Shown: positions 424-31,609, counted from the stretch's first letter. The stretch is 32,000 nt of DNA from Planctopirus limnophila DSM 3776 (GCF_000092105.1 NC_014148.1:720001-752000); one strand, 5' to 3'. The notes: a model not told the origin generated them from the letters alone. A program made the numbers and translations.

Positions 424-428
424 GGAGG
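424..428 (+). promoter_or_regulatory. Shine-Dalgarno-like ribosome binding site for the giant ORF
   Basis: GGAGG lies 6 nt upstream of ATG 435. An in-frame TGA at 384-386 leaves no earlier ATG or GTG, so the start cannot be extended upstream. Confidence 0.6.
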
Positions 429-434
429 TTTTTC

Positions 435-3400
435 ATGTCAGTGACCCAATGGCTGCAGAATCTTGTGGCCTCCAAACAACGCGATGTGGCGACCTGTCTG
501 AAACCAGGCAGTCTGCGCTCGACCCTCCTGCAGGTCGAGCCGCTGGAGGAACGTCGCGTCTTCAGTGTGACCCCCGTGCTGAATGGAAGCGTACTGGAGA
601 TCACTCTCGATGCTGACGGAGACACCGCCTATCTGCGAACTGACGATCTGAATAACGAGCTAGAGGTATACGATCAAACCAACACACTGATTGATTCATT
701 CGATTACAGCACGTTTCATTCGATCAGTTTGATTGGTGATGGTGCGAATAGTGGGGTGCAGACAGTTGTCTTCGACAATTCAACCTCATTGAATCTGGCG
801 GGCGACATCACGACTTCAAGTGATGATATTGAGATCATCAGTATCAATGGCGATTTGAACCTCACAGGGGAATTGTCGCTGACTGTCGGCGAGTCAATTT
901 TTGTTGGCACGAATCGCATCGTATCCGCAGATGACGGAATTTCGCTCCTTGCTTTGAGCGGAACGAACGCAACAGAAGTTAATCTGGCTGCCGATTCGTC
1001 ACTGACGACACTTGGAAAGATTGAGCTTCGCTCTGATGCCGGTGATATCCATGCGGGATTTTTGACTGCGGGCGATCAGATTGAAGTGGTGGCACAGGAT
1101 CAGATCACGTTCGCCAGTGACATCGCCTTTACGACGAGCGGAATCGTCAATCTGGCTGTTACATCCACTTTGGGCGATATTGAACTCAACGGTTCGATTG
1201 ATGCAGACTCTTCGACGGGTGGGGCTTATCTGTTTAACCTCGGGCCTTCGGGAACGCTGTTCCTGAATGGCGATATTCACGCACCGGCTTCTGCGGGGCA
1301 GACCACAGTCGATGGGAATCTGACATTCGGAAATGGTTTCAGTTTCGATCAGTTCTTTCTCACGGGGAGTACGCCGAATGGTGACTATGACACCACGGGA
1401 AGTGCGTTTCTGGTAACGGGTGCCAACCGTGTGGTCGATCTGGGGAATGCAGACTTTACGTTTACCCGAGAGCCCGGCTATCTGGCTGTTGTCGGGGATC
1501 AGTTTCAGGTGATTGCGCTGGCCGACTCCAGCAGCAGCATCACCGGGAATTTCTCCAACCGCTCAGAAGGGGATGAATTCTATAGCGAAGGGGTGCGTTA
1601 CAAGTACTCTCAGGCTGGCGGAGATGGTAACGATGTCGCACTGACGATCCTTTCGCCGACCACCGTCTGGGTCGATGACGACTTTGCCGCACTGTTGAAT
1701 GGCGATGATCCTGCCGGGCCCAGAGTGATGTTTGGTTACGACAGTTTTGCTCTCGTTCAGCAGGGTGTCGATCAAGTGGCAGATATGGGTCTGGTCAATG
1801 TCGCCGCCCATGCCACCAGCTATAACGAAGAGGTCGTCGTTACTGGAAAATCTCTCACGCTCGTTGGCGAGAGCGCCAGCACCACCACCATTTTCTCCTC
1901 CACAGGAACAGCGTTTTCAGCGAGCAACGCAGCTGACATCAGGCTCGAACAGTTGACGTTCTCAGGTGTGAATTCGTTGGACTTAAGTGCCATTGATGCG
2001 ACAACACTCACGAATATCACCACGACTGGTCCGGCAACCATCACAGGCACACAACTGATATTGATCAGTGACGGAGCCTCGAATGATGTGTTCACCATTA
2101 ACGATAGTGGTATCTCATCCAGTGGCTTGCTGATAATCGACCAACTCGATTTCACCGTGGATACTTTGGAAGTTGACGCCGGTGATGGCGATGATCAGAT
2201 CTTTGTGCGTCCCCAGCCCAGCACGACAATCCTGATTGATGGAGGAGATGGAGTCGATACGCTTGAAGCCGACTTCTACGGGCTCTATGGGTTTGCGAAT
2301 ACGCCCGACGGGATGATTGCCGGGGCTGGTGCGTTGACTGCTGCGGACAGGGAGGACGTCACCTACGCCAGCATTGAAAACTACAGCGCATTGGTTGAAG
2401 CCAATGCGGTCATTGTGGCGCAGAATCCCGATGACAACGTCGCCGACAACTGGCTGGTCAAACGCAGTGACAGCGACCCCTCGATTCTCGAAGTCTATGT
2501 AAATGGTGTGCTCGCCTTCCAGCAGGATTATGCGAGTACCAACAGCCTCACAATCAACGGCTCAGGTGACGACGACACTCTGGTGATGGATCTGTCCAAT
2601 GGCGAGATCGATCTCGCGGGCGGATTGCATTTCAATGGCGGGAATGGAAACGACGCCATTGAGTTAAACGGCAGCCAGACTTTCACGAAAGTGACACACA
2701 CTTTCGTCAGTGAGAATGACGGTTCGATTGAAGTCATCGGTAATGGAACCACCAGCATCTCTTACACCGGGCTGGAACCAATTGTCGATAACCTCTCGGC
2801 GACCACGCGCGAGTTCATCTTCACTGGCGGAAACGAGACGATCAGTCTCACTGACGACGCAGCGGCTGGTTACAACCTGATCGATTCATCGCTCAGTGAA
2901 TCGGTTTTGTTTCTCAATCCGACCGACACGCTGATTATCACCGTGCAAAATGGGACGGATACGTTCACAGCGAGTTCGCTGGACGCCGCCTTTGGGGCGA
3001 ACATCTTCGTCACCATGGACGACGCTGACAGTGCTGGCGCAGACGCACTGATTTGGAATGCGGATACGACACTGGGTTCGGTTCTTGTAGCCGGAACGTT
3101 TGAGTTGGTCGTCGAGACAGGCACGATCGACATGAACGCTGCCGTCGACAATACGGCCGGTGGTGGCAGCATTCGGCTCGAAGCCAGCGACGGCATTACT
3201 CAACAGGGCAGTTTAACCACAGCCAGCAATATCACCATTGCCAGCACTGGCGGAACAGTGACGACGGAACTGCTGGAGGCCACTGATGCCGTCAGCGAGA
3301 TCACGATCACGGGAACATCGGTTACACTCGCAGGAAATGTGACTTCGGGAAGTCTTGTTGATATTACGGCCACTGCAGGATCAATCGAACAGACAGGTGG

Positions 3401-6400
3401 CCTCGTCACGTCGCCAACACTGATTCTCGATGCCCAGACAGGAATCTTCGGCACGACGGCGATGGTGGCCCGTGCGATGGAGATCAGTGCCAGCACGATT
3501 ACCGCCAAGACCAACACCGGCGGCATGCAAGTGGAAAACGCCGCGACGACAGCGACGACAGCGACTCTCACTGCGACAACAGGCAATATCCTTTTCAACC
3601 AGACGGGAGGCCAGTCGCTGACGCTGACCAACGTTGCCACCAGCGGCAACGCGAACCTCACCAACAACGCTACTATGACGCTCAACTCGGCGCTGATCAG
3701 CGGTTCGGGGGAACTCACTCTCGAAGGGACCCAAGTCATTTTGGGTGGCAATATCACCGCCTCTGGCCGGGCGACGATCACTGCTACTGATTCGATCACC
3801 CAGACCGCCGGGACCCTCACCTCGCCGATCCTCGAACTCGATGCCCAGAACGGTATCGGTTTAGCCGCTGACGCGATGGAAATCAGCACCAGCGACATCA
3901 GCGCCACCACGGCAACGGTAGGCGTCTTTCTGTCCAACGCCTCTAATATCACGACGGGAGCTGTGACAGCGAGCAATCTGCAGGCAACGACAAGCGGCAA
4001 CATTTCGTTCGTGCAGACGGGTGGTCAGAGCCTGAGTGTGACGAATGTGTCGACGACCAGCGGCGATGCGACGATTTCGAATGCGGGAGATCTGACTGTT
4101 GCAGCGGCGATGGTCCTGGGGACGAATGGTCAGCTGTCGTTGACGACGACCGCCGGTGGCAATCTCTCGCTGGGAACGGCCACGACGGACGGGAATCTGC
4201 TGGTGACGAGTGCGGGTGCATTCACGCAGACAGGAAACACGACGGTCGGCGGCCTGCTCGATGTGGATGCCGTGAATGCGATCGATATTCAGGGAACGCA
4301 GGGGATTACGGGCACGACCTCGATCACATCGTCAGGTTCCACCGTTCGTCTGCGACAGGCGTTGACATCGGGTGGAGCGGTGACACTGGCGGGAACTGGC
4401 GGCATCACACTGGATGCGACGGGGGATGTGACATCGACGGCTGGCGGTATCACGATCATTGGCGATCTGACCACAGCGGCAAATCTCGTCACTGACGATC
4501 AGCCGATCGAGGTGCAGGGGAATGTGCTGCTGACGGGCAGTGTGCTGTTCGACAGCGACAGCACGAACACCGGCACCGGGGCCGATGTGACGGTCACCGG
4601 CGATATCGACCTGGCGACGTTCACACTGACAATCGACGCGGGGCCGGACGGTGATTTCTCGGTGGGGGATGTGACGGGGACGACGGGCGATCTGGTGATT
4701 GAAGAGGCTCATAGCCTGTCGTTTGGTTCGCTGACGGCCGACACGATCAACATCGGGCCGATCACAGGTGATGTCACGATTGGTGCGGGAGGCTTGACAG
4801 CGAACAGTGCCAGCTTCGATCTGGACGGCAACTTCACGAATAGCGGTGCGACGAATGTCACCAATCACCTGCTGGTGCAGGCGGGAGGCTCGATCGAGTT
4901 CGTGGGTGATGTGGAAGCGGGTTCGTTGGAACTGGATGCGGGGACGACGATCGACCTGGGGAACGTGGTTGTCGATACCACGACAGTCCTCACGAGTGTT
5001 GGGGTGCTGACTGTCGGCGGTACGCTCAATACGGGCGGTACGCTGACCGTGGAATCGACGGCGGGCGATGTCCGGTTCGTGCAGACCGTGACGGCCGGGG
5101 GCGAAGTGCAACTCACCGCCGATCAGGAACTGCGGCTCGACAACCTATTGACGGTCACCGCAGGCGGAGCGTCGCTGACGGGTGCCACCGTGCTCTTGGA
5201 CAACGCCACCATCGTGCAGCTGAATGGTGCCGGCGATGACCTGTCGATCACCGGGACGCTAACGACAGGTGCCAATCTATTCACGACCGGCGGCGATATC
5301 ACGATCACAGGGAACACGACACTCACTGAGGGAATCAATGTTGGCTCGACGGGGGGGGATATCCTCTTCAATGGCCTTGTTACTGGTGCCGGTTTCGACT
5401 TGAGCATTGACTCAGCGGCAGGTTCGTTGGAGTTGGGCGGCGCGGTGACTGCGGTGGACGATCTGGTCCTCAAGGGAGCTTCAGTTACTACGCTTTCGCT
5501 GTCGGCGGCGACATTGAATGGGACAACGACAGCCGGCCCCTGGGAAACAACGGGCAACATCACCATCACGGCGGCGATGGAACTGGATGCCACTGGCGGT
5601 CTGTCGATCATCGGCAGTATCAGTGCGGGGAGCCTGCAGGCTGTCGCGACGGGAACATCACTCTTCACCGGCACCATCACGACCACGACCGGCAATGTGA
5701 TTGTCGGCACGACCACAAGCGGGGCGATCGACTTCCAGGACGACGTGACGAGTGCCGGCAATGTGACAGTCACTTCTCTGGGGGCTGTCGACTTCGGAGG
5801 CCATCTCTTTGCGAATGGTGTCACAGGTACCATCGAGGTTATCGGAGCGTCGGTCGATTTCGCGGACGATGTGGAAGCCGCGACCAGCATTGAGATCACG
5901 GCCAACACAGGAGCAATCAACCAGACTGGCGGGACATTCACCACGCTGACGCTGATCTTGGATGCGGGAGCAGGCATCGGCACGACCGGCGTGGTCAACA
6001 CTAGTGCCCGGACAATCACCGCCACGACCAACACCGGCGGCATCAACCTCGCCAACCTCTCGACGGTCACCAATGGAGCCGTGACCGCCACCCTCACGGC
6101 CACTACCAGCGGCAATATCCAGTTGGTGCAGACGGGTGGCCAAGGCCTCACGATCACGAGCGCTGAAACCAACAACGGCGATATCGTGATCTCGAACACG
6201 GGGGCGAACCTTACGGTCACCACGGCCGAGGCTTTGGGTGCGGATGGCGACATCACCCTGAGCACCATTACCTCGGGCAACCTGGAACTGGGGACTGCCG
6301 ATGCGACGGGCGACCTGAACATCACCAGCGCGGGGAGCTATACACAAAGTGGCAATGTCGAGGCGGACGGGTTGGTTGACATACAGTCGGATGATCTGCT

Positions 6401-15400: not shown

Positions 15401-18400
15401 GTCGGTCACGACGGTCGGCGGGATGGTGCTCACCGCCGGTCAGGATATCGACGTGACGGGGGCAGTCGATGCCGGGGCGACCTTCAGCGCGACGGCGACC
15501 GCTGGTGCGATCTCGCTGGATAGCACGTTGACCACGGGGGCTGCCGCCGATTTGACGAGCGGGACGACGACGACAGTGCTGGGTGTGGCATCGATCGATG
15601 GCAATCTGGATGTGCTGGCGGGGGACACGATCCGTTTTGCCCAGACTCTGGATGCCACGGGTGCGGTGACACTGGAAACAGGGGCAAGCGCCACCGACGA
15701 GATCCTGCTGGAGGGTGCGGTTGGCGGCGTGGCCAGCCCGACTTCGATCACACTGACATCCGGCGGCAAGGTGCTGGCTTCGAGCCGCGTGACAACGAGC
15801 GGCACGCTGGAAGCCGATGCTGGAACTTCGATCGAGGTGCAGGGACTGCTCACGGCCAATGCGCTCGATCTGGATGCCGGGACGGACATCACGCTGGACG
15901 ATGTGCTGGTGACGACGAGCAGTCTGCTGCGGGCGGGCGGCAACATCGAAGTGAACGGGACGTTCGACACCGGTTCCTTGGATGCGATCGCGGGGGGGAC
16001 GACGACGTTCAATGACAGTGTCACGGTGACGGCGGGGAACGCGGTCATCGGCGATACGAACAGCGGGACGGTGCAGGCACTCGACTCGCTGGATGTGGCA
16101 GGCGACCTGACGATCACGACGGCGGGTGACATTGACCTGGACGGCACGGTCGATGTTGGTGGGAACCTGCTGTTCGACGCGGGGCTGAGCGTCAATGTGG
16201 CCGGGGCCACCGATGTGGTCGGTGCTGCGACCGTCACGGCGGACGACGACATCGACTTCGGCAGCACGCTTGATGTGGGTGGCGCACTGAGCCTCACAGC
16301 GGGAATGGCCAATACGGATGACATTCGATTGGCGGGGAATGTGGGTTCCACTCGGACACCAACTTCGATCACGCTGAATGCGGGGGGATTGATCCAGGCG
16401 TTGGGTTCGATCACGACCAGCGGGCTGTTGGAGGCTGATGCCGGGACTTCGATAGAAGTTGTGGGGGATCTGGACGCGGGTTCTCTGGAACTCGACGCCG
16501 GGACGACGATCGATCTGGGGAACGTGACAGTCGATACCACAACAGTCCTCACATCGGTAGGAACGCTGACTGTCGGTGGCGACTTCGACACGGGGACGAC
16601 TTCGACCATCTCCAGCGGCGATGCGACGTTCACGGGGACCTACCGTTCGGGCGGACGGACGGAGATCGCTTCGACGGGGAATGTCTTGTTCCAGTCGACG
16701 CTGGATGTCGACGCGGATGGACTGGAGATCATCGCTGACGGGACGACAACGTTTAGTCAGACGGTCACGGTCGTCGGCAACGCGGTCATCGGGGATACGA
16801 ACAGCGGAACGGTGCAGGCGTTGGCAGCGCTGGATGTGGCAGGCGATCTGACAATCACGACGGCGGCTGACATTGATCTGGATGGCACGGTTGATGTCGG
16901 TGGAAACCTGCTGTTTGATGCGGGGCAGAATGTCAATGTGGCGGGTGCTACTGATGTCGTTGGTAATGCGACAGTGACGGCGGACGACGATATTGACTTC
17001 GGCAGCACGCTCGATGTGGGCGGGGCACTGAGCCTGACGGCGGGAACGGCCAATACGGACGACATCCGGCTGGCGGGGAATGTGGGTGCCACAAGGACGC
17101 CGACTTCGATCACGTTGGATGCCGGTGGTTTGATCCAGGCGTTGGGGACGGTAACGACCAGCGGCACTTTGGAAGCCGACGCGGGAACTTCGATTGAGGT
17201 GCAGGGGCCACTGACGGCTGACTCGCTGGATCTCGATGCCGTGACGGATATCACGCTGGATGATGTGGATGTCACCAATGCGAGCGTGATCGCGGCGGTG
17301 GGCGATCTGCTGGTGAATGGAACTTACGATGTCGGGACGACCAGCACGATCACGGCCAACGATGCGACATTCGTCGGTGCCTATGAAACAGGTGGTCGGT
17401 CGGAATTGGATCTGACGGGCGACTTCGAGGCCCAGTCGACGTTCACAGTGGTCAGCGGCGGGTTGGAGCTGCTGGCCAACGGAACGACGACATTCGTGGG
17501 CGTGGTGGAGATCACAGGTGCGGCGGTCATCGGCGAACTGACCAGCGGGACGATTAACGCGCAAGAGACCTTCACGGTCACCGGCGGCGATCTGACGCTC
17601 CAGAGTGCCGACGACATCGACTTCGACCGGGCGCTGGATGTCTCGGGTGCGATTGTCGCCACTGCCGGGAACGACTTCCTGGCCCAGGAGACAATTGACG
17701 CCGCTTCGCTGACAATCGATGCCTCGCGGGATGTCCTGATTGATGGAGCGGTGGCGACCAGCGGACTGGTGGATGTCACCGCCGGTCGCGATGCGGTCTT
17801 CGGCGATACGCTCGATGCGGGGACGACACTCACGGTGAAGGCGACGACGGGCGATGTGAGGTTTGTGGGGGCTGTCACCGCGGGTAGTGTCGTGGTGGTG
17901 ACGGCGACTGTCGGCGAGATTCGAGTTGATGATCTGCTGACGGTCACCGACGGCTTCGTGCTGCTCGAAGGCTCAAGTGTTCTGCTCGATAACGATACCG
18001 TGGTTCAACTCAACGGTGCAGGACGCGGCCTGACCATTTTGGGGACGCTCACAACGGGTGCCGATCTACTCACGAATGGCGGAGACATCCTTACGGGCGG
18101 TGGCGGCATGACCTTGACCGATTCCATCACGATTGAGACTGCCGGAGGGAATCTCGAATTCAACAGCACTATCAATGGGCAAGTCGCCAGCACATTCGAC
18201 CTGACGATTGATACGGATGACGGCCGCGTGGATTTCAACAATTCCGTGGGCGACATTAACCCTCTCAGGAATCTGGTCATCAGTGAGGCTGGAGATGTGT
18301 TGCTGACCGATGTTCAAGCCGATTTGCTGAGTATTGCGGACAGCTCAGGCACAGTCACTTTTGTTGGTGATGTGATCACAACCGCAGCCAATGGACTGGA

Positions 18401-21400
18401 TGTGACGGCCGAGGCGATCGTCATGCTGGCGGGGAGTTCGCTGAACTCGACCGGGCAGGATGTCGTACTGACGGCGAACGATATCGACCTGAACGGCGAT
18501 GGCATCACAGCCACCGGGGTCACTGTGTTCCTCCAGACTCGTGACGACGCGACGGCCATCGGGCTGGAGAACTCCTCCACGGCGATGAACTTCACCGATG
18601 CCCAGCTCGACAAGATTCTTTCAAATAGCCTCGTTATCGGGACGGCGACCAACACGGGCGGAATCACCGTCGGCACCGATGCTCCGCTGACGATGAATCA
18701 ACCCGAGGTGCAACTGCTGACGGCTGGTGATGTGACAGTGAACGGCTCGCTGACGGTTCTGGGGACGGGGACACTCGCGGTCGATGCGGGTGACGATGTG
18801 GCGGTCTTCGGGACGCTGGCCACCACGAACGGTGCGCTGGTCGTGAACGCGGACGACAACATCACGATGGGGGCTGCGGGACGTGTGACGAGCACGGGTG
18901 GAACGATCACTCTCGCCGCCGATGCTGATCTGAATGGAGCCGGCTCGTTCACCATGACGAACGGCGCCATTGTCGAATCGCAAACGCAGTTGGTGACGAT
19001 CACGGCGGCGGGTAATGTGACTGTCGGTCAGGTGATCTCCGGTCGAACGGGTGGGCTGGCAATCGATGTTGTGTCGCGAAACGGCGCGATCATCGATGGT
19101 GGCGACACGGGGGGCTCGGATCTGATCGCCAACGGTGCGGGGGCGATCACGCGGCTCGATGCGGCCACGGGGATCGGCAGTGCGACGGGTCTGGCAAGCG
19201 ATGCCGCCCTGGAAACCACGGTTTTTGAGCTTCAGGCGACCAACCGCACGAGCGGCGACATCCGCATCGACGAGACCGATGCCTTGCGGCTGCAGGATAT
19301 CGACAACCAGGGGCCGGGGGCCATCGCCGTTCAATCGGTTGGGACGATGACGCTGCTGACGGGCTTTGATGTGACTGCCGCCAGCGGTCTCGTTTCGCTG
19401 TTGGCGACAGGTGCGGCGGCCGATCTGCTGCTCAACGGCTCGGTCACGACGACGACGAGTTCGATCACGCTGGGAGCGGGTCGGAATGTGCAGTTCAGTG
19501 GTGTGACGACCATCCAGACGAACGGCAACATCGGGATCACGGCGACGAACGGCACAGTGCGGATGCTCAACGGCTCGGTGGTGAATGCGGGAGCCGGGAC
19601 GATCGCCGTGACGGCTAATGGAGATGTCAGTATTTCGCGACTGGTGACAACAAACGCGACGACGAGTGCCGTACAGATCACCTCGCAAACCGGTGGCATT
19701 CGTGATAGCGGCGAAAGTGGTGGGGCTGATATTCAGGCCGACAGTGCAGGGGCCTTGGTCACCTTGAGGGCCGCGACAGGGATCGGCAGCGTTTCCGATG
19801 GCGGTGCCGATGCACCACTGGAACTGCAAGTTGCTCGACTGGATGCGATCAACAGCACCAATGGCGATATTCGGTTCAGCGAAGCGACGGGGCTGAACAT
19901 TGAACGCCTGACTCAACAGGGAGCGGGTCAGATCGAGGGTGTGGTGAACGGGGCCACGATCATCACCGCGGCGGGTCAGGGGATCAGCAGCCAGACGGGG
20001 GACATCTCGCTCACGGTGAATGGTGCCGACGCGGATTTGACGGTGCTGAACAACGTCTCCACGACCGGCGGCGACATCACCCTGAACGTGCGGGGGGATG
20101 TCACTGCAGCGGCAAATGTGACGATCGCTTCGCAGGGCGGGAACATCGTCATCGCGGCGGACAGCGATCTCAACAACGTGGGTGGAATTGCCTTGGCGGA
20201 TGGCTCGTTGATCGATGCTGGTGCGGGGACGATCGTGCTCTCCGCCGCCGAGAACATCGCGGTGAGCCGGCTCGTCTCGACGAATGCCGGGGGGGCGGCG
20301 GTGTCGCTCACTTCGCGGCTGGGGGCGATCACCGATGCGGGGGACACGGGCGGCGTGGATATCGACGCACCGACAGTGGTGCTGCGGGCCGCAACAGGTA
20401 TTGGTTCCGGCAACGCCCTGGAGACGAACATCGCCACGCTCGCTGCACGGAACACGACCAGCGGTGGCATTCAGATCGACAACACTGCTGGGGCTGGGCT
20501 GAATGTCGCAACAGTGGATGGACTGACGGGAATCACGAACGCGGGGGCCAACGGGCTGGTGTCGCTGGTAACGTCAGGGGATGTCTTCATCAACGGGGCG
20601 GTGCTCAATACGGCGGGGGGGACGATCGAGATCACTTCGCTGACCGGGGATATCACTCTCAACCAGCGGTTGGCAGCCAAGGGAGGGAATGGTTCGATCT
20701 CTCTGGATGCGGATGAGGATATCAATCTCAACGACACGGGTTCGCAGCCAGATGTGGAAGTTCAGGGAGCGGGGAGCGTGGTGGGTGTCGCCGGTGGTCT
20801 GGTGAACTTCGCACCAAATGTGCAGGTGGCCAGCCAGACGGGGGCGGTGACCGATGTGCCGCCGCTCTTGATCAATGTGCAGACACCACAGGTGCAGGCG
20901 GATGGTTCGGCACAGGTCTCGGGGACTTTTGGCCGTCCGGGCGAGAAGAATTTCATCATCACAGTCGACTGGGGCGACGGGACTGTCGAGACGTTCTATT
21001 TTGATCAGCCGGGGAACTTCCTGTTCAAGCATACTTACAACGGCAATCCGGATCCGAACAACCCGGCTTCACCAATCCCGATTACAGTGACGATCGAGCA
21101 GGATCCGCTCATCCGCTTCTTTGAAGCCCGCGTGGTGGAACAGAACACGACGACGGTTACGAGTTTCGCGAGCGTGCCGGGCGAAGGATTGGCGGGAAGC
21201 ATTCCGTTCGATCTGACGCCACCGGTGCGGCCCGTACCGGAACCAGCGCAAACAAGGCTTGATGAAGCGCTCTTATCGCAGAGTGTCGGATTGAGTCTGA
21301 GTGATGTCCTGCAGGATGAAAGTACTGCCGGCGAAGCTGTTGGTGACGATGAGATCCAGGTTGTGATCCAGGTGCTTGGTGCCGATGGAGAGGTTCTCCA

Positions 21401-22151
21401 GAGCGTGGCTTTGAACGAGAGTGTGCTCGACGATCTCCCGAAAATTTTCAAAAAGTTGCCAGACGGGCAATACAAGGTGGTGGTTCGAGAGCCGGGTGAA
21501 CCTGTTGAGAGAACTGTCCTTGAAGTCGAATTGCGTCAGGGACGGATCGTCAACGAGCAGGAACAGGATCTTGACCGACCCCCACGGGAAACAGGGAACC
21601 CGTCAGGTGTGAATCCGGAAGCGAATATGCCAGGGGCTGGTAACCATCGTGCTGCTGGCGAGAGTGAACGGATGGCCCAGTTCTCGAGAGAGGGCCAGGA
21701 AAACCAGCAGGCCGCACAGGGTTTTGGATATCGTTCGTGGCGAATTCAATCCCGGCTGGACGAAGCCTTGGGAGCGAAATCGGTTGAGCAAGAGACTGGT
21801 CGAGGGCAGGATGTTCTGTTCGAAGTCAAAAACAGTGAGTCGAGCCGTGATGCCTCGCTGATGAGGGTTTTATCGCTCGTAACGGATGTATCAGATCCTC
21901 TGATGAAGGAGGTGAATGAGGCAGAAATTCCCCTGAACGAAGATTTCGACTCGATGGAACGAAGGGAATCGCTGGAGATCGATACCGAGATTGCCTGTAT
22001 GGAAGAAAATTCGGGAGGATACTGGATCACTCAGGTCGCCATAGCCGGTACGATCATGTTGGGCGGAGTGGCTGTCACAAATTCTCTGACTGATAAGGTT
22101 TCGCCGCTGGCGAGAGGTCGTCGGCTCATGCGAAGATTATCGGGAAGATAG
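435..22151 (+). CDS. Giant (7,238 aa) beta-strand-repeat, beta-helix-like surface fibre or adhesin-like protein with a C-terminal TM anchor
   Basis: This is a single open frame of 7,239 codons with ATG plus SD. The ~20-residue T/G/D/A/V/L rungs repeat consistently in this frame only. Recognisable motifs include GGDGNDV, GDGDD and GNGND, a PKD-like WGDG..HTY segment, and a terminal TM helix followed by RGRRLMRRLSGR. Paralogous modules differ mainly at synonymous positions, which supports translation in this frame. Confidence 0.93.
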   Translation: MSVTQWLQNLVASKQRDVATCLKPGSLRSTLLQVEPLEERRVFSVTPVLNGSVLEITLDADGDTAYLRTDDLNNELEVYDQTNTLIDSFDYSTFHSISLIGDGANSGVQTVVFDNSTSLNLAGDITTSSDDIEIISINGDLNLTGELSLTVGESIFVGTNRIVSADDGISLLALSGTNATEVNLAADSSLTTLGKIELRSDAGDIHAGFLTAGDQIEVVAQDQITFASDIAFTTSGIVNLAVTSTLGDIELNGSIDADSSTGGAYLFNLGPSGTLFLNGDIHAPASAGQTTVDGNLTFGNGFSFDQFFLTGSTPNGDYDTTGSAFLVTGANRVVDLGNADFTFTREPGYLAVVGDQFQVIALADSSSSITGNFSNRSEGDEFYSEGVRYKYSQAGGDGNDVALTILSPTTVWVDDDFAALLNGDDPAGPRVMFGYDSFALVQQGVDQVADMGLVNVAAHATSYNEEVVVTGKSLTLVGESASTTTIFSSTGTAFSASNAADIRLEQLTFSGVNSLDLSAIDATTLTNITTTGPATITGTQLILISDGASNDVFTINDSGISSSGLLIIDQLDFTVDTLEVDAGDGDDQIFVRPQPSTTILIDGGDGVDTLEADFYGLYGFANTPDGMIAGAGALTAADREDVTYASIENYSALVEANAVIVAQNPDDNVADNWLVKRSDSDPSILEVYVNGVLAFQQDYASTNSLTINGSGDDDTLVMDLSNGEIDLAGGLHFNGGNGNDAIELNGSQTFTKVTHTFVSENDGSIEVIGNGTTSISYTGLEPIVDNLSATTREFIFTGGNETISLTDDAAAGYNLIDSSLSESVLFLNPTDTLIITVQNGTDTFTASSLDAAFGANIFVTMDDADSAGADALIWNADTTLGSVLVAGTFELVVETGTIDMNAAVDNTAGGGSIRLEASDGITQQGSLTTASNITIASTGGTVTTELLEATDAVSEITITGTSVTLAGNVTSGSLVDITATAGSIEQTGGLVTSPTLILDAQTGIFGTTAMVARAMEISASTITAKTNTGGMQVENAATTATTATLTATTGNILFNQTGGQSLTLTNVATSGNANLTNNATMTLNSALISGSGELTLEGTQVILGGNITASGRATITATDSITQTAGTLTSPILELDAQNGIGLAADAMEISTSDISATTATVGVFLSNASNITTGAVTASNLQATTSGNISFVQTGGQSLSVTNVSTTSGDATISNAGDLTVAAAMVLGTNGQLSLTTTAGGNLSLGTATTDGNLLVTSAGAFTQTGNTTVGGLLDVDAVNAIDIQGTQGITGTTSITSSGSTVRLRQALTSGGAVTLAGTGGITLDATGDVTSTAGGITIIGDLTTAANLVTDDQPIEVQGNVLLTGSVLFDSDSTNTGTGADVTVTGDIDLATFTLTIDAGPDGDFSVGDVTGTTGDLVIEEAHSLSFGSLTADTINIGPITGDVTIGAGGLTANSASFDLDGNFTNSGATNVTNHLLVQAGGSIEFVGDVEAGSLELDAGTTIDLGNVVVDTTTVLTSVGVLTVGGTLNTGGTLTVESTAGDVRFVQTVTAGGEVQLTADQELRLDNLLTVTAGGASLTGATVLLDNATIVQLNGAGDDLSITGTLTTGANLFTTGGDITITGNTTLTEGINVGSTGGDILFNGLVTGAGFDLSIDSAAGSLELGGAVTAVDDLVLKGASVTTLSLSAATLNGTTTAGPWETTGNITITAAMELDATGGLSIIGSISAGSLQAVATGTSLFTGTITTTTGNVIVGTTTSGAIDFQDDVTSAGNVTVTSLGAVDFGGHLFANGVTGTIEVIGASVDFADDVEAATSIEITANTGAINQTGGTFTTLTLILDAGAGIGTTGVVNTSARTITATTNTGGINLANLSTVTNGAVTATLTATTSGNIQLVQTGGQGLTITSAETNNGDIVISNTGANLTVTTAEALGADGDITLSTITSGNLELGTADATGDLNITSAGSYTQSGNVEADGLVDIQSDDLLLTQGTVTAGTTINLESTNGGIEVQQAVEADGNVDLQALSNILLTGSVTTASNITIESTIGDITTAVLTATGLTSEIRINGQDISLGGDIDAGSLVSIFAGDRINQTAGTITSPTLVLDALSGIGTISTIQVASNNIDAKASSGRIFLVNDSSVLTGGVTAILQGNSGNIQFTQTGGQELTVTSATTTVGNITLSNDGADLNANNTTTSSGGISLLTTTSGSITAGLVGSGGGSGAISIISAQSVTTTNQIITDGTIVITAGTTTADDIILGGNLRGAGGPNQPVSITLTAGGKIDSIGSMTTNGLLQAEAGTSIEIDGTITANALDLTAGTTALDSITLGVVDVNTTTSLTSGGALQVTGNFDTGTTTTINTGSATFSGTYRSGNRTELTSTGDVLFEQTLNVDGGGMELFATGTTTFYAAVTVVGDALIGDSLTGGTVQAQGPVDVTGWLTINSQDNVLLDDTVDVGGDLVVHAGRDGTGDLVIGGDIGVTRTPTGITLTAGDLIDVAGSITTTGLSGNLFLTSGTTMTLTGPVNASAEVRLENCGLLSITDPAGITAAGRIMQAGAGDVSLHGNITSTSGEVNFAEDVVLTSDVVVTSGSSITFQKTINGTTAGSEDLTLDATTTVTLGGAVGAVTRLGVLTIDGTTVTTAGITAAALDGETTSSGNWDTTGDVDITGLAKVIAAGSFTLTGNLNAAEVEATANSDLTITGTTSTSAGGDVTLTTLTTGNVEVGAIDADGDVRVTTVGSYTQNGNVEAAGLIDIQSNGLLLTVRTVTAGTTLDLESTNNAIEIQQAVSAGGNITLIGSTNVTLGVNGDVAATNAGSTITVTGDLTTAGDLVTNNGAILINDDVTLTGNAKFDSNSSDGVGGGADITVSGAGGIDLGAFTLTIDAGFVGDFATDLVTGTPLSALVITNAQDASVGTGNLTAGTVTIDLVGNFTNHGTATVNDLIDVAAGGNILFQQAIDAESVDLSANEDVTLNGDVTAVTSVKMVANADGTLPGGNVTTQAITTSGLSSTIELRGDAVDLGGDIEAGESVLVVATSGAITQLAGTTITTDNLGLFAAGDIGTGLQFFQTDVNRLAVRSTSGDVFLENASDLEIGGVTFESFTGASAVNLTVNVVAGALNVSGNVNTTDDITLDATSGITISGDVLSTGGTILLDADSDADANGVFNVTATGSVEATSEAIRITASDVMLAGSLTASGAGTFGPNNAPVGFVEIRQSTAAATIGLGLAAGDLSLDAAELANITTNQLIVGRTDGGDVSIAAAGNLSPHIGTLVLLTNGNVAGAVDGSPDVSVGQLAIVAGGQVALDFDVTTLALSAGNAVTGHVLQDTAGSLTIGSLAEAVGGTLVAGVQTGTGQTTIEALGGDTGDLIINSLIVAGGNSLTLMADDDVTVNADVTLATGTLVIEADADGSSNGEITIASGADVAVTSGLATDSITLCAADLDVAGTVNVGLGTVELLTSTAAGTFGLGSGSGSYEVTQSELDQITANRLLVGSATKTNAGIELGDVSWSGAGKEARLTTDGAITQDAGSTLAITTPTLVLDAATGINLQVNADSLSARNRTSGDIVLVDTTGGLTIANDLVVGGLVNQTAGGAIDLRVAANTLTTLAGAQIATNVGHIRLRADEYVLGAGINAGTETVLLQNDTAGRTISLNGAAAGINLSQAELQGIVAGTLEVGRADTGDVSVGDIDGLNVTTLAIITNGSIEQNLTSVITVANLALVAQTGINLTTRVDTLALRNGTSGSVTINQGNRALTLGEVNLKASTVTGTTQNGSGDLEITAANSVTITEEITSSGNVLIDAVGAISQQADIDATGETVTLESDATIGMASGTSITATSATLTAVGDVTLAEIVAGTIEVTSTGGSIQDVDVSDSTVNLNAGAGSITLAAATGIGTTGGAAGTLELSGKTISATSTNGGMNLSNASNITTGAVTASNLQATTSGNISFVQTGGQSLSVTNVSTTSGDATISNAGDLTVAAAMVLGTNGQLSLTTTAGGNLSLGTATTDGNLLVTSAGAFTQTGNTTVGGLLDVDAVNAIDIQGTQGITGTTSITSSGSTVRLRQALTSGGAVTLAGTGGITLDATGDVTSTAGGITIIGDLTTAANLVTDDQPIEVQGNVLLTGSVLFDSDSTNTGTGADVTVTGDIDLATFTLTIDAGPDGDFSVGDVTGTTGDLVIEEAHSLSFGSLTADTINIGPITGDVTIGAGGLTANSASFDLDGNFTNSGATNVTNHLLVQAGGSIEFVGDVEAGSLELDAGTTIDLGNVVVDTTTVLTSVGTLTVGGDFDTGTTSDISSGDVTFVGTYRSGGRTEIASTGNVLFQSTLDVDADGLEIIADGTTTFDQAVTVVGNAVIGDTNSGTVQAVGLVDVAGDLTIMTAGDIDLDDTVDVGGNLLFDAGQNVNVAGATDVVGNATVTADDDIDFGSTLDVGGVLSLTAGTANTDDIRLAGNVGATRTPTSITLDAGGLIQALGTVTTSGLLEADAGTSIEVQGLLTANALDLDAVTDITLDDVSVMTNSLLRAGDAILVNGTFNTGSLDAVAAGTTTFNEAVTVTTGNGVIGDATSGTVQALAALDVSGDLTITTAADIDLDGTVDVGGNLLFDAGQNVNVEGATDVVGSATVTADDDIDFGSTLDVGGALSLTAGVANTDDIRLAGNVGATRTPTSITLDAGGLIDASGTVAAGGILTADAGTSLNFDQAVTTTGAGSDILLTSGTTMRLAGAVNSSGEVELDNGGLLSILDPAGITAAGRVVQIGTGDVSLHGDITSTSGEVNFAEDVVLTSDVVVTSGSTITFQKTINGTTAGAEDLTLDAVGDVTLGGAVGNTTRLGALVIEAAAVSTQALTVASLDGTSQTGNWTTTGNIDATGAVLLEVAGNLDINGNLEADSLDAVADGTSLFAGTVDVTNNAVIGAATSGAVTINDLVTVGGDLTVRSADDITIGDGLLTDGMDVTGAVVMNSVSGDVTVRGTTEAGSLNTNAGNDILFDGSVTTVGGMVLTAGQDIDVTGAVDAGATFSATATAGAISLDSTLTTGAAADLTSGTTTTVLGVASIDGNLDVLAGDTIRFAQTLDATGAVTLETGASATDEILLEGAVGGVASPTSITLTSGGKVLASSRVTTSGTLEADAGTSIEVQGLLTANALDLDAGTDITLDDVLVTTSSLLRAGGNIEVNGTFDTGSLDAIAGGTTTFNDSVTVTAGNAVIGDTNSGTVQALDSLDVAGDLTITTAGDIDLDGTVDVGGNLLFDAGLSVNVAGATDVVGAATVTADDDIDFGSTLDVGGALSLTAGMANTDDIRLAGNVGSTRTPTSITLNAGGLIQALGSITTSGLLEADAGTSIEVVGDLDAGSLELDAGTTIDLGNVTVDTTTVLTSVGTLTVGGDFDTGTTSTISSGDATFTGTYRSGGRTEIASTGNVLFQSTLDVDADGLEIIADGTTTFSQTVTVVGNAVIGDTNSGTVQALAALDVAGDLTITTAADIDLDGTVDVGGNLLFDAGQNVNVAGATDVVGNATVTADDDIDFGSTLDVGGALSLTAGTANTDDIRLAGNVGATRTPTSITLDAGGLIQALGTVTTSGTLEADAGTSIEVQGPLTADSLDLDAVTDITLDDVDVTNASVIAAVGDLLVNGTYDVGTTSTITANDATFVGAYETGGRSELDLTGDFEAQSTFTVVSGGLELLANGTTTFVGVVEITGAAVIGELTSGTINAQETFTVTGGDLTLQSADDIDFDRALDVSGAIVATAGNDFLAQETIDAASLTIDASRDVLIDGAVATSGLVDVTAGRDAVFGDTLDAGTTLTVKATTGDVRFVGAVTAGSVVVVTATVGEIRVDDLLTVTDGFVLLEGSSVLLDNDTVVQLNGAGRGLTILGTLTTGADLLTNGGDILTGGGGMTLTDSITIETAGGNLEFNSTINGQVASTFDLTIDTDDGRVDFNNSVGDINPLRNLVISEAGDVLLTDVQADLLSIADSSGTVTFVGDVITTAANGLDVTAEAIVMLAGSSLNSTGQDVVLTANDIDLNGDGITATGVTVFLQTRDDATAIGLENSSTAMNFTDAQLDKILSNSLVIGTATNTGGITVGTDAPLTMNQPEVQLLTAGDVTVNGSLTVLGTGTLAVDAGDDVAVFGTLATTNGALVVNADDNITMGAAGRVTSTGGTITLAADADLNGAGSFTMTNGAIVESQTQLVTITAAGNVTVGQVISGRTGGLAIDVVSRNGAIIDGGDTGGSDLIANGAGAITRLDAATGIGSATGLASDAALETTVFELQATNRTSGDIRIDETDALRLQDIDNQGPGAIAVQSVGTMTLLTGFDVTAASGLVSLLATGAAADLLLNGSVTTTTSSITLGAGRNVQFSGVTTIQTNGNIGITATNGTVRMLNGSVVNAGAGTIAVTANGDVSISRLVTTNATTSAVQITSQTGGIRDSGESGGADIQADSAGALVTLRAATGIGSVSDGGADAPLELQVARLDAINSTNGDIRFSEATGLNIERLTQQGAGQIEGVVNGATIITAAGQGISSQTGDISLTVNGADADLTVLNNVSTTGGDITLNVRGDVTAAANVTIASQGGNIVIAADSDLNNVGGIALADGSLIDAGAGTIVLSAAENIAVSRLVSTNAGGAAVSLTSRLGAITDAGDTGGVDIDAPTVVLRAATGIGSGNALETNIATLAARNTTSGGIQIDNTAGAGLNVATVDGLTGITNAGANGLVSLVTSGDVFINGAVLNTAGGTIEITSLTGDITLNQRLAAKGGNGSISLDADEDINLNDTGSQPDVEVQGAGSVVGVAGGLVNFAPNVQVASQTGAVTDVPPLLINVQTPQVQADGSAQVSGTFGRPGEKNFIITVDWGDGTVETFYFDQPGNFLFKHTYNGNPDPNNPASPIPITVTIEQDPLIRFFEARVVEQNTTTVTSFASVPGEGLAGSIPFDLTPPVRPVPEPAQTRLDEALLSQSVGLSLSDVLQDESTAGEAVGDDEIQVVIQVLGADGEVLQSVALNESVLDDLPKIFKKLPDGQYKVVVREPGEPVERTVLEVELRQGRIVNEQEQDLDRPPRETGNPSGVNPEANMPGAGNHRAAGESERMAQFSREGQENQQAAQGFGYRSWRIQSRLDEALGAKSVEQETGRGQDVLFEVKNSESSRDASLMRVLSLVTDVSDPLMKEVNEAEIPLNEDFDSMERRESLEIDTEIACMEENSGGYWITQVAIAGTIMLGGVAVTNSLTDKVSPLARGRRLMRRLSGR
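525..569 (+). other. N-terminal 'LLQVEPLEERRVFSV' motif (LExLExR type), a possible non-classical export or sorting motif
   Basis: These are residues 31-45 of the giant protein. The preceding 30 residues (MSVTQWLQNLVASKQRDVATCLKPGSLRSTL) have no hydrophobic h-region. From memory, LExLE(D/E)RxxxS motifs recur near the N-termini of large planctomycete extracellular repeat proteins. I could not verify that here. Confidence 0.5.
1617..2666 (+). other. Head region with five GGxGxD-like (RTX/hemolysin-type Ca-binding-like) motifs and a pectate-lyase-like beta-helix start
   Basis: The GGxGxD-like motifs are GGDGNDVAL (1617-1640), DAGDGDDQIF (2175-2204), DGGDGVDTL (2238-2264), NGSGDDDTL (2556-2582) and NGGNGNDAIEL (2634-2666). 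The segment 'FGYDSFALVQQGVDQVADMGLVNVAAHATSYNEEVVVTGKSLTLVGES' (approx 1730-1880) resembles the usual start of right-handed beta-helix domains. Confidence 0.5.
3929..4984 (+). repeat. Copy 1 of a 1,056-bp near-identical intragenic direct repeat
   Basis: Line-by-line comparison with 12194-13249 (offset 8,265 = 3 x 2,755) found one mismatch, T3943 versus C12208, a synonymous TCT/TCC change. The encoded 352 aa are identical. The shadow ORFs 3949-4221(-)/12214-12486(-) and 4289-4492(-)/12554-12757(-) are also identical. Confidence 0.9.
12194..13249 (+). repeat. Copy 2 of the 1,056-bp near-identical intragenic direct repeat
   Basis: Same comparison as for copy 1. Identity breaks down upstream of 12194 (a12193 versus t3928). 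It decays after 13249, with mismatches at 13250, 13253 and 13265. Confidence 0.9.
13161..17273 (+). repeat. Array of diverged paralogous modules. The 'DLTITTAxDIDLDGTVDVGGNLLFDAGQNVNV...' units start at 13551, 14172, 16104 and 16845. A second-order repeat has an offset of 3,294 bp.
   Basis: Segment 13161-13979 aligns in frame with 16455-17273 (offset 3,294 = 3 x 1,098). Unit spacings are 621 bp (A to B) and 741 bp (C to D). Protein identity is about 94% between units A and D over 143 codons, and DNA identity is clearly lower. Confidence 0.85.
18980..20740 (+). repeat. Three tandem, diverged ~203-210-aa super-repeats, each carrying an 'L(D/R)AATGIGS...LE..v..L.A.N.tSG.I' signature
   Basis: The anchor serines in 'VVSRNGAIIDGGDTGG', 'ITSQTGGIRDSGESGG' and 'LTSRLGAITDAGDTGG' lie at 19074, 19683 and 20313, giving periods of 609 and 630 bp. 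The AATGIG motifs lie at approx 19155, 19764 and 20382. Confidence 0.75.
20880..21110 (+). other. PKD-like / Ig-like domain at the end of the repeat rod
   Basis: 'QVSGTFGRPGEKNFIITVDWGDGTVETFYFDQPGNFLFKHTYNGNPDPNNPASPIPITVTIEQD' matches the PKD hallmark pattern WxxGDG ... HxY ... hydrophobic strand ... D. Confidence 0.55.
22023..22148 (+). other. C-terminal TM helix plus Arg-rich tail (membrane anchor or sorting-signal-like terminus) of the giant protein
   Basis: The terminal sequence is ...EENSGGY-WITQVAIAGTIMLGGVAV-TNSLTDKVSPLA-RGRRLMRRLSGR-stop. It is the only long hydrophobic stretch I saw in the protein. By the positive-inside rule, the basic tail places the extreme C-terminus in the cytoplasm. 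Confidence 0.7.
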
Positions 22152-28732: not shown

Positions 28733-29764
28733 ATGATGCGCGCACTCCAGCTTGTTGAACCGAGAGCTTTCCAGTTCATTGAAATTCCTGAAGTGGCAGA
28801 GCCGGGTGCAGGTGAAGCTGTGGTCGAAGTGCATCGTGTGGGAATTTGCGGCACAGACCTGAGTGGGTATCTGGGGAAGATGCCTTTCTTTTCGTATCCA
28901 CGCATACCGGGACATGAACTGGGTGTGCAGGTGCTGGCTGTGGGTGAGGGTGTCACCAATGTTAAGCCGGGGGATAAATGCTCGGTCGAGCCTTACATCA
29001 ATAACCCGGAGAGTTTTGCCAGTCGCCGAGGACGGGGGAACTGCTGTGAAGAGTTAAAGGTTCTGGGTGTGCACACGGATGGCGGATTGCGGCGGCGATT
29101 TATTGTTCCTGCCCGCAAGTTGCACCCTGCCCAGAAATTATCGTGGGAGCAGTTAGCACTCGTCGAGACATTAGCGATTGGATGCCATGCGGTCGATCGC
29201 TCGATGGCGCAGCCTCAGGAAGATGTGCTGGTGATTGGAGCCGGGCCCATTGGACTTTCCGTCATTGAGTTTGTGAAGCTGTCGCAGGCGCGTGTGATTG
29301 TGATGGACATGAATGCCCAGCGGCTGGCTTTCTGCCGGGATGTGATGGGAGTTCGTAATACGATTCTATCCACCGGGGATGGCAAAGAGCTGCAAGAACT
29401 TGAAAAGCTGACTGATGGGCATCTGGCGATGGCGGTCATCGATGCGACAGGTTCAGCCCGATCGATGTCGCAGGCCTTGCAGTATGTGGGGCATACGGGA
29501 CGACTCGTTTATGTAGGCATTACGACTGATGTCCTCTCGTTTGGGCACCCCCTGATGCACCGCCGGGAAATGACGATCATGGGTTCGAGAAATGCCATGC
29601 CTCAAGATTTTGGGCGCATTATTGATCATATTGAAGCTGGGCGGATTGATACCCGGCCCTGGATCACGCACACGATTCCGTTTGACAATGTGATTGATGA
29701 GTTTGAGCGTTTCACCAAGCCAGAAACGGGTGCAATCAAAGCCATGATTGATCTGGATTGTTGA
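28733..29764 (+). CDS. Zinc-type medium-chain dehydrogenase/reductase (alcohol, sorbitol or threonine dehydrogenase-like), probably NAD-dependent
   Basis: The protein contains GICGTDL and GHE catalytic-zinc ligand motifs. It also has 'GVTNVKPGDKCSVEP' and a Rossmann motif VIGAGPIGLSVIEF followed by 'VIVMD'. The four-Cys structural-zinc loop is not evident, only NCCEE. The start could be ATG 28733 or 28736. Confidence 0.92.
   Translation: MMRALQLVEPRAFQFIEIPEVAEPGAGEAVVEVHRVGICGTDLSGYLGKMPFFSYPRIPGHELGVQVLAVGEGVTNVKPGDKCSVEPYINNPESFASRRGRGNCCEELKVLGVHTDGGLRRRFIVPARKLHPAQKLSWEQLALVETLAIGCHAVDRSMAQPQEDVLVIGAGPIGLSVIEFVKLSQARVIVMDMNAQRLAFCRDVMGVRNTILSTGDGKELQELEKLTDGHLAMAVIDATGSARSMSQALQYVGHTGRLVYVGITTDVLSFGHPLMHRREMTIMGSRNAMPQDFGRIIDHIEAGRIDTRPWITHTIPFDNVIDEFERFTKPETGAIKAMIDLDC

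Positions 29765-31521: not shown

Positions 31522-31609
<88 letters not shown>

Follow-up and report, generated by a model that had tools for sequence, protein, structure and literature searches.

We analysed a 32,000-nucleotide stretch of the genome of Planctopirus limnophila DSM 3776 (GCF_000092105.1, NC_014148.1:720001-752000), referred to below as the window. It carries a giant open reading frame (ORF) on the + strand, which had been picked out in an earlier sequence-only reading of this DNA, and a gene for a receptor-type Ser/Thr kinase follows it. The giant protein is probably an exported, envelope-attached beta-solenoid fibre of a Planctopirus-type planctomycete, and it is possibly coupled to the kinase. 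The gene and the parts of its product are assigned as follows, with nucleotides (nt) counted along the window and residues (aa) along the protein.

435..22151, + strand: giant ORF of 7,238 aa, from translation, with an ATG start and one stop codon, at the end
424..428, + strand: Shine-Dalgarno-like GGAGG, 6 nt ahead of ATG 435
435..569, + strand: N-terminal leader (aa 1-45), a basic stretch and then LLQVEPLEERRVFSVT (aa 31-46, nt 525-572), a putative cell-surface signal of the Planc_extracel type
570..2534, + strand: non-periodic N-terminal region (aa 46-700), from sequence, with no Pfam, NCBIfam or PDB match
2535..3014, + strand: widely shared module of ~150 aa (aa 701-860), with the pattern ...VTHTF..DGS..V.G...I.YTGLEPI.DN..A..R.FTF.GG.E.I.L.DD...
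3075..20744, + strand: predicted beta-solenoid rod (aa 881-6770) with coils of ~20 residues and three strands each, from autocorrelation and an AlphaFold2 (AF2) model of one tile
13122..17384, + strand: super-repeats in tandem, with units 207 and 247 aa long (aa 4230-5650) and 60-93% identity between units, from autocorrelation and tiled BLAST
3929..5020, + strand: internal duplication, copy 1, 1,092 nt, 99.2% identical to copy 2
12194..13285, + strand: internal duplication, copy 2, from sequence comparison
20865..21104, + strand: PKD-like domain of immunoglobulin (Ig) fold (aa 6811-6890, DWGDG at aa 6845), from the AF2 beta-sandwich, Foldseek and alignment to relatives
21357..21584, + strand: small alpha/beta domain and DRPP (aa 6975-7050, 'VLDDLPKIFKKLPDGQY...LDRPP'), from the family alignment and BLASTP to relative P0003
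21585..22013, + strand: charged, probably disordered linker or stalk (aa 7051-7193), 31% D/E/K/R, AF2 predicted local distance difference test (pLDDT) below 40
22014..22085, + strand: uncharged hydrophobic segment of 24 residues, GGYWITQVAIAGTIMLGGVAVTNS (aa 7194-7217), from hydropathy
22086..22151, + strand: basic tail (aa 7218-7238), 33% K/R, with the TAG, from composition

The frame runs without interruption from ATG 435 to TAG 22151, as had been claimed. Its start codon is fixed by the upstream stop, the Shine-Dalgarno-like sequence and the N-termini of the orthologues: ATG 435 is the earliest possible start downstream of an in-frame stop, nt 1-434 contain stops in all six frames and are thus non-coding, and the same GGAGG precedes the ATG in the metagenome contig L018. 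The protein is composed of 15% Thr, 13% Gly, 11% Ala, 8.5% Asp and 0.5% Lys with only 4 Cys, and has a net charge of about -670 (D+E 844, K+R 172). A genome scan with the C-terminal module located the gene in Planctopirus hydrillae JC280 (locus L005, 95% amino acid identity) and in a Planctomyces metagenome-assembled genome (MAG; L006, 93%). No stop interrupts the frame over the 11.3 kb compared in L005 (3,781 codons), and the same kinase-WD40 and zinc-dependent alcohol dehydrogenase genes come after it. Contig L018 contains the N-terminal 4,041 codons, open up to the contig end, and its indels do not exceed 14 aa. All three assemblies keep the frame open and are colinear with the window; L018 (aa 1-4041) and L005 (aa 3220-7238) jointly corroborate the entire architecture. 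Between the window and L005 the ratio of non-synonymous to synonymous substitution rates (dN/dS) is 0.099 over 3,771 codons (dS 0.43, Nei-Gojobori) and stays at 0.07-0.23 throughout in blocks of 500 codons. The single terminal stop, the low dN/dS and the colinear independent assemblies indicate that the giant ORF is a real, constrained coding sequence under purifying selection. The window's TAG (22149-22151) is TGG (Trp) in three of three relatives (L005, L006 and L004), which run 10 codons further (WLSSSREDAE, then stop), and an in-frame remnant (LSSSPEEPE, then stop) is readable past it. Either a nonsense mutation has recently shortened the tail by 10 residues, or the sequence is in error here. 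Promoter and terminator scans around the giant gene found nothing. The G+C content is 0.58-0.64 in the solenoid-coding part (3000-21000) against 0.50-0.55 in the flanks and neighbouring genes, with a positive GC skew throughout. The raised G+C is most simply explained by the Gly/Ala/Thr/Val/Asp-rich composition, and a foreign origin is not required.

Autocorrelation of residue identity and of hydrophobicity peaks at lags of 20-21, with sub-lags of 6, 8 and 14, from aa ~880 to 6770 (nt ~3075-20745). This bears out the rungs of ~19-23 residues read earlier at 3200-20750, and the peptides then quoted are present (VDVGGNLLFDAGQNVNVAGAT at aa 4388 and 5486, DVVGNATVTADDDIDFGST at aa 4409 and 5507, LDVGGALSLTAGTANTDDIRLAGN at aa 5526). 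Structure prediction on one tile (aa 4230-4700, 471 aa), using an alignment made of in-window paralogues, gave a solenoid: the AF2 model is all-beta, with a pLDDT of 95.7 and a predicted template modelling score (pTM) of 0.89, and has 70 strand elements at 20.2 aa per coil, three strands to each coil. We infer that the bulk of the protein (~5,900 residues) is a three-stranded parallel beta-solenoid of ~20 residues per coil, which agrees with the parallel beta-helix type proposed from sequence. Some 290 coils (aa 881-6770) at the canonical rise of 0.48 nm give a rod length of ~140 nm, and the earlier estimate of 0.1-0.15 micrometre is thus reasonable. A Foldseek search of the tile against the PDB listed only beta-helix proteins (RsaA, HxuA, EtpA, HMW1, VacA, tapirin and an antifreeze protein), none of them significant. 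Pfam and NCBIfam scans of overlapping tiles, with both termini searched permissively, assigned no part of the giant protein to a family with significance, and neither of its termini nor a profile of the solenoid matched any PDB sequence. Fil_haemagg_2, Beta_helix (PF13229), PATR, PKD and HemolysinCabind, the families suggested by the sequence-only reading, have no match above threshold on any tile; of the beta-helix repeat families DUF5649 alone appeared, at E 0.0027 with 18.4 bits against a gathering cut-off of 25.

Comparison of the tiles with one another by tiled BLAST showed that the rod is built of several super-repeat families. Besides the tandem units of 207 and 247 aa there is a further super-repeat ~203 aa long at aa 6090-6770. 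P. hydrillae (L005) is without exactly one 247-aa (741-nt) unit, in frame (window ~16460-17200), and this is the sole large indel between the two; the number of repeat copies differs between close species. The two copies of the internal duplication share an identical interior of 1,040 nt (3943-4982 = 12208-13247, 8,265 nt apart) and differ at their edges by 6 synonymous changes and 1 non-synonymous change. The same duplication is found in L018 at the same ~8.3-kb spacing. Gene conversion or a duplication of recent date probably explains the perfect repeat, at which assemblers could go wrong. Because this duplication is perfect and copy number differs between species, expansion of the ectodomain by repeat duplication seems to be still going on.

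Hydropathy of the first 60 residues reveals no hydrophobic h-region in the leader. A planctomycete-specific cell-surface signal with the consensus RRLxxExLExRxLLA has been described (Studholme 2004, as cited in PMC8567305; Pfam PF07595), and residues 32-44 (LQVEPLEERRVFS) match LxxExLExRxLLA position by position. In L32-x-x-E35-x-L37-E38-x-R40-x-V42-F43-S44 all five fixed core positions agree with the consensus and the last three are conservative replacements, V-F-S instead of L-L-A. The RR of the consensus is out of register, with R28 two residues upstream. The motif, at aa 31-46, lies inside the first ~50-70 residues as the signal class requires. A position-specific scoring matrix built from 43 related leaders gives the window leader 29.0 bits, against a leave-one-out median of 30.0, and none of 188,567 background positions reaches this score. 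The pattern [LIVMF]E.R.[LIVMFA] occurs in the first 90 residues of 48 of the 134 full-length module-sharing proteins (36%) vs 1.4% of control windows, and in related proteins the motif is always preceded by an Arg/Lys-rich stretch. The leaders of the window and L018 agree at 49 of 50 positions, whereas the first ~300 aligned residues are only 64% identical; the motif is also identical in P0010, a 59%-identical protein. The leader is a divergent variant of the planctomycete cell-surface signal and not a formal Pfam member. The N-terminus had been called non-classical, a description that must be withdrawn given the fit of aa 32-44 to a published signal and the recurrence of the same leader among the module-sharing proteins. 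A Tat signal, raised by the residues RRVF, was considered and rejected: most related leaders have a single R there (LEDRTLL) and no h-region follows.

Two further N-terminal parts precede the rod. The non-periodic region (aa 46-700) contains a GGDGNDVALT motif (aa ~395-405) that closes one sub-domain, and one isolated RTX-like nonapeptide at aa 603. The module at aa 701-860 is the best-matching part for most of the 770 matches of an exhaustive search. It is common to several hundred large proteins, with four copies in one of them (P0017), and its hosts bear a type IX secretion system tail, GEVED, Beta_helix or DUF5649. Neither Pfam nor NCBIfam has a model for this module, a candidate for a new domain family.

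The C-terminal region was modelled less well (AF2 pLDDT 44 overall), and only the PKD-like core, with a pLDDT of 65-79, was used. Its top Foldseek match is the PKD domain 4xed (E 5e-4, TM-score 0.75, root-mean-square deviation 2.7 Å), with 1wgo and 6aem also listed. Pfam PKD and PKD_4 do not match the window's own sequence. The domain does align with the last PKD unit of relatives, six of eight of which match PF18911 (best E 1e-14). By fold and by transitive homology aa 6811-6890 are predicted to be PKD-like, in agreement with the PKD-like domain proposed before. The small alpha/beta domain with DRPP that follows (AF2 pLDDT 66-68) is the family signature. It contains an invariant L.DLP..F..LPD..Y (columns L198, D200, L201, P202, F205, L208, P209, D210 and Y213, then D247, R248, P249 and P250 of alignment A3). 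The linker corresponds to the charged stalk seen in the sequence-only reading and holds a conserved SW..(R)(L/V)D.A element. A Pfam search of the last 638 aa returned only a sub-threshold DUF4097 match. Sortase and exosortase signals (LPXTG, PEP-CTERM, GlyGly-CTERM) gave no NCBIfam match on the same 638 aa, and no motif is visible. We note that a C-terminal signature of a short Ala/Gly/Val-rich stretch, W..(R/Q)VD.A and a strongly basic end recurs in P0034 (2,289 aa) and in P0003-P0008, leader-bearing proteins of very different length. A second C-terminal type, SFTRAAR..RR, is present in P0014, P0020 and P0050. These recurrent C-termini are possible candidates for sorting elements.

The C-terminal 538 aa retrieve 'hypothetical proteins' of 515-875 aa from distant Planctomycetota (P0003-P0008; e.g. 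MCA9229492.1). Full-length short members consist of a leader (PFSPRRLExRRLLDASAAGLL), 3-5 PKD units, the alpha/beta domain, DRPP, a weak hydrophobic stretch, SW..RVD.A and RKNR. They share with the giant protein the last PKD-like unit, the DLPxxFxxLPDxxY domain and DRPP (25-29% identity, pairwise E 2e-19), a leader of the same type in the full-length P0003, P0005, P0006 and P0007, and the same flanking genes at loci L001/L008 (P0003), L007, L009 (P0004) and L013. They differ from it in their size, in their 3-5 PKD units and in having no solenoid, and their C-terminus lacks both the 130-aa extension seen in the giant protein and its better hydrophobic segment. The downstream flanking gene is the kinase:

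22365..27935, + strand: receptor-type Ser/Thr kinase of 1,856 aa, the partner gene, from Pfam, NCBIfam and hydropathy

Its N-terminus has two CxxC pairs (zinc-ribbon-like) followed by ~350 acidic low-complexity residues and then by Pkinase at aa 372-590. One strong transmembrane (TM) helix at aa 742-760 (nt 24588-24644, Kyte-Doolittle hydropathy (KD) 2.65) is followed by an Ala/Glu/Lys-rich coiled coil and by WD40 propellers at aa ~900-1830. The kinase is 98% identical in P. hydrillae. Its orthologue lies directly downstream of the short member in L001/L008, L007, L009 and L013, with 43-47% identity over ~1,500 aa. The 213-nt spacer between the giant gene and the kinase contains no terminator-like site. 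On the other side a divergently transcribed gene, which is conserved 5′ of every family member, sits directly 5′ of the giant gene in L018 (2179-3195, - strand), and would sit just left of nt 1 of the window. Its product, in which a hydrophobic N-terminal segment and a Pro-rich region precede a C-terminal RHxPLYFEE..ER.GY domain, is 36% identical to the relatives' counterpart (E 3e-30) and has no Pfam or NCBIfam model. Besides this divergent gene, the upstream part of L018 has a gene for a small TM protein and an ORF called sulfatase-like from inspection of its translation. In the comparison with other Planctomycetota, which the sequence-only reading had proposed, the C-terminal module and the flanking genes are conserved and the solenoid has no counterpart in the short members. 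The giant protein is thus the Planctopirus version of the middle member of a conserved three-gene cassette, its ectodomain probably grown into a solenoid.

Other genes lie near some of these loci. Genes for an OEP (TolC-like) protein, two HlyD-like proteins and a 724-aa M50-like peptidase stand upstream of the cassette in L001 (1539-9095); L013 (1-3260) likewise has the two HlyD-like genes and the M50-like one, while its OEP gene would fall past the locus end. A link of the cassette to a type I secretion system (T1SS) or to regulated intramembrane proteolysis through these genes was rejected as a conserved feature, as they are absent from L007 and from the Planctopirus-type L018. In the window itself, a gene of the zinc-dependent alcohol dehydrogenase family (343 aa, 28733-29764) follows the kinase after a gap of ~800 nt and is syntenic in P. 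hydrillae and the MAG. A tRNA-Ser gene (anticodon CGA) lies at 31522-31609 on the + strand.

In the reading we favour, the leader would direct export of the giant protein, its C-terminal end would remain at the cytoplasmic membrane or close to it, the basic tail lying in the cytoplasm, and the linker, the alpha/beta domain and the PKD-like domain would be periplasmic. The acidic ~140-nm rod, with the N-terminal modules at its tip, would extend across the envelope or run along it, as a fibre that serves for adhesion or as a spacer. The ancestral cassette protein would have had a variable ectodomain, which repeat duplication then enlarged in the Planctopirus lineage. The C-terminal module would act together with the kinase's WD40 propellers in the periplasm, and might for instance report whether the fibre is engaged or what state it is in; such cooperation is suggested because the neighbourhood is conserved. 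PKD domains and an acidic, Cys-poor composition are typical of extracytoplasmic proteins, and the giant protein appears to be of this character because of its PKD-like fold, its net charge and its few Cys. Several observations weigh against this reading. The hydropathy of aa 7194-7217 averaged over 19 residues (KD19) is 1.55 vs 1.64-1.77 for the solenoid maxima, and AF2 does not model the segment as a helix, in what is a poor C-terminal model. The matching position in the short relatives is weaker still (KD19 0.45-1.09), so an anchor would not be family-wide. A PF07595 search of the 60-aa leaders of the window and P0010 gave no match even at E <= 10, where positive-control leaders of three relatives scored 31.9, 24.9 and 21.2 bits (gathering cut-off 25.5). 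The retrieved passages of the literature treat the export role of the leader only as a hypothesis (PMC8567305). The rod length uses the canonical rise and not one taken from model coordinates. The evidence for the possible link between the giant protein and the kinase is conserved gene order, and membrane Ser/Thr kinases with WD40 domains are abundant in the phylum. The sequence-only reading had the protein end in a TM helix as a tail anchor: the uncharged 24-residue segment and the basic tail stand, and the segment may be a membrane anchor, though its hydrophobicity is marginal.

The same marginal segment is where a different reading begins. The fibre may be released or belong to an outer layer, a possibility we consider unlikely; the C-terminal segment and basic tail would then be a sorting or processing signal, or be membrane-peripheral, and the rod would lie on the outer membrane or cell wall or be shed, like S-layer and sheath proteins. 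A KD19 of 1.55 suits this, the 12-15-residue weak stretch of the short members with SW..RVD.A and a basic tail resembles a signal more than an anchor, and the same C-terminal signature occurs in the otherwise different P0034. Leader-bearing proteins of T. immobilis are found in the SDS-soluble envelope fraction (PMC8567305), and the S-layer protein RsaA is among the best, non-significant, Foldseek matches. However, no sortase-type motif or NCBIfam model was matched, and the conserved neighbourhood contains no processing enzyme. The tail after the segment is also 21-31 residues long, and typical sorting-signal tails are shorter. If the missing h-region in the first 60 residues is instead taken at face value, together with the single hydrophobic segment at the extreme C-terminus, the protein could be a cytoplasmic tail-anchored scaffold, made without a Sec signal and with its bulk inside and only the C-terminal segment inserted. 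We regard this as very unlikely. By the positive-inside rule the basic flank of a membrane segment is cytoplasmic, so the basic tail after the segment favours a cytoplasmic C-terminus with the bulk outside. The PKD-like domain, the extreme acidity and the Cys-poor, Thr/Gly-rich composition also point outward, and the leader recurs on proteins with extracytoplasmic domain types and on envelope-fraction proteins.

It is highly improbable that the protein is a classical Gram-negative giant adhesin, be it of two-partner secretion (TPS, FhaB-like), autotransporter or T1SS RTX type. The fold class is that of a beta-helix, HxuA, HMW1, EtpA and autotransporter passengers stand in the Foldseek list (E > 0.1), three isolated GGxGxD-like nonapeptides occur, and OEP and HlyD-like genes lie upstream in some short-member loci. 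Against this, no tile matches a TPS, Fil_haemagg_2, Autotransporter, HemolysinCabind or PATR model, even permissively. The TPS domain (Haemagg_act) has no Pfam match in aa 1-1000 even at E <= 10, and NPNL and NPNG occur nowhere in the protein. The autotransporter C-terminal barrel has no Pfam match, and AF2 shows a disordered linker past aa 7050; the C-terminus is this linker and the hydrophobic segment, not a barrel or RTX block. The isolated nonapeptide-like matches, at aa 603, 735 and 1637, all lie away from the C-terminus. No gene for TpsB, an ATP-binding cassette (ABC) protein or a membrane fusion protein (MFP) stands beside the giant gene in the window or in L018, the downstream neighbour being the kinase-WD40 gene, and OEP/HlyD genes are absent from L007 and the Planctopirus loci. 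The absence of a TPS signature, C-terminal barrel and RTX signal noted from sequence is thus upheld by the Pfam and NCBIfam tile scans and the motif search. We find it hardly credible that the ORF is an assembly artefact or a decaying repeat pseudogene. A perfect 1,040-nt internal repeat could mislead assemblers and the window's TAG is premature relative to the orthologues, but constraint is seen in every 500-codon block (dN/dS 0.07-0.23), three independent assemblies keep the frame and order, and the duplication spacing is kept in L018. Apart from one complete in-frame repeat unit there is no large difference in length from P. hydrillae, and the TAG removes just 10 tail residues.

Returning to the envelope-attached fibre, the locus offers a well-defined test case: one constrained 7,238-aa solenoid with a leader, a conserved C-terminal module and a receptor-kinase neighbour. 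A more far-reaching proposal, which we put forward as doubtful, is that the three-gene cassette is a planctomycetal surface-sensing unit. An exported antenna or tether would have its C-terminal module read by the kinase WD40 domains, and in Planctopirus the antenna would have been rebuilt from a short PKD array into a ~140-nm solenoid, perhaps a crateriform fibre, giving a contact or mechanical sensor that feeds Ser/Thr phosphorylation. In P. limnophila, crateriform structures join the inner membrane to the outer, and fibres 6 and 12 nm in diameter emerge from them (PMC5394234); connecting the giant protein with these fibres is speculative. Genetic tools are available for the genus of P. limnophila (PMC5394234). 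Should the pairing of fibre and kinase be functional, the abundant planctomycetal kinase-WD40 receptors would have their first candidate for a ligand or partner, and there would be a handle on how surface fibres are built and monitored. Should it not be, the giant protein would simply join the other giant surface proteins that await characterisation.

Giant genes are characteristic of the Planctomycetota, and Reva and Tummler are said to have reported giant genes in 2008. Compared with the classical systems, the giant protein resembles the TPS exoproteins (FhaB, HMW1, HxuA, EtpA), which have a long right-handed beta-helix, in its predicted long rod with coils of ~20 residues and in its adhesin-like shape. 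Unlike them it has no TPS domain, NPNL/NPNGI, TpsB partner or Fil_haemagg HMM repeats, and its Foldseek matches to them have E above 0.1 and a TM-score of at most 0.36. With the T1SS RTX adhesins (LapA, SiiE, MpIBP) it has in common a giant size, an acidic, repeat-built make-up and Ig-like domains, and like them it may be held at the cell by one end. Those adhesins consist of Ig-like repeats, a C-terminal RTX block with a secretion signal and an N-terminal retention module, whereas the giant protein is a predicted beta-solenoid that starts with a leader, lacks an RTX array and has no T1SS genes beside its own. The neighbouring kinase has exactly the architecture described for planctomycetal membrane Ser/Thr kinases, with Pkinase in the cytoplasm, one TM helix and C-terminal WD40 domains that are predicted to lie in the periplasm (PMC11032199). 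The retrieved passages of that paper name no ligand or partner for these kinases and discuss no gene order or operon; their adjacency to a family protein is observed here.

The closest known systems are the planctomycete giant surface proteins. About half of planctomycetal genomes contain genes longer than 20 kb (Kohn et al. 2016, PMC5177795), and planctomycetal giant genes have mostly been assigned to surface proteins (PMC5177795, PMC12673574, PMC11573180). In the passages retrieved the functions of their products, namely adhesion, carbohydrate binding and surface structure, are inferred solely from domain content. In T. immobilis 52 proteins carry the planctomycete motif; proteomics detected 20 of these, 8 of the 20 only in the SDS-soluble fraction (Seeger et al. 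2021, PMC8567305). Eight of its ten longest proteins (4,016-10,566 aa) bear the motif and are likely surface proteins (PMC8567305). The giant protein of P. limnophila is like these in phylum, in comparable size, in a motif within the first ~50 residues, in having no Sec h-region and in being acidic and repeat-rich. Its leader diverges from their signal (V-F-S for L-L-A, RR out of register) and falls below the PF07595 threshold. The reported giants mostly have recognisable domains (integrin-beta/Calx, Ig-like, cadherin, dockerin), whereas the bulk of the present protein has no Pfam match, and the C-terminal module and kinase cassette are not mentioned in the retrieved passages on planctomycete giants. 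The sequence-only reading had recognised no described adhesin class. That view does not stand, as giant proteins with this leader were already known (PMC8567305): the giant protein is a member of a recognised planctomycete giant surface class and not of a new class of adhesins. What is new is the high-confidence solenoid model, a bulk with no curated family, the conserved C-terminal module and the receptor-kinase cassette.

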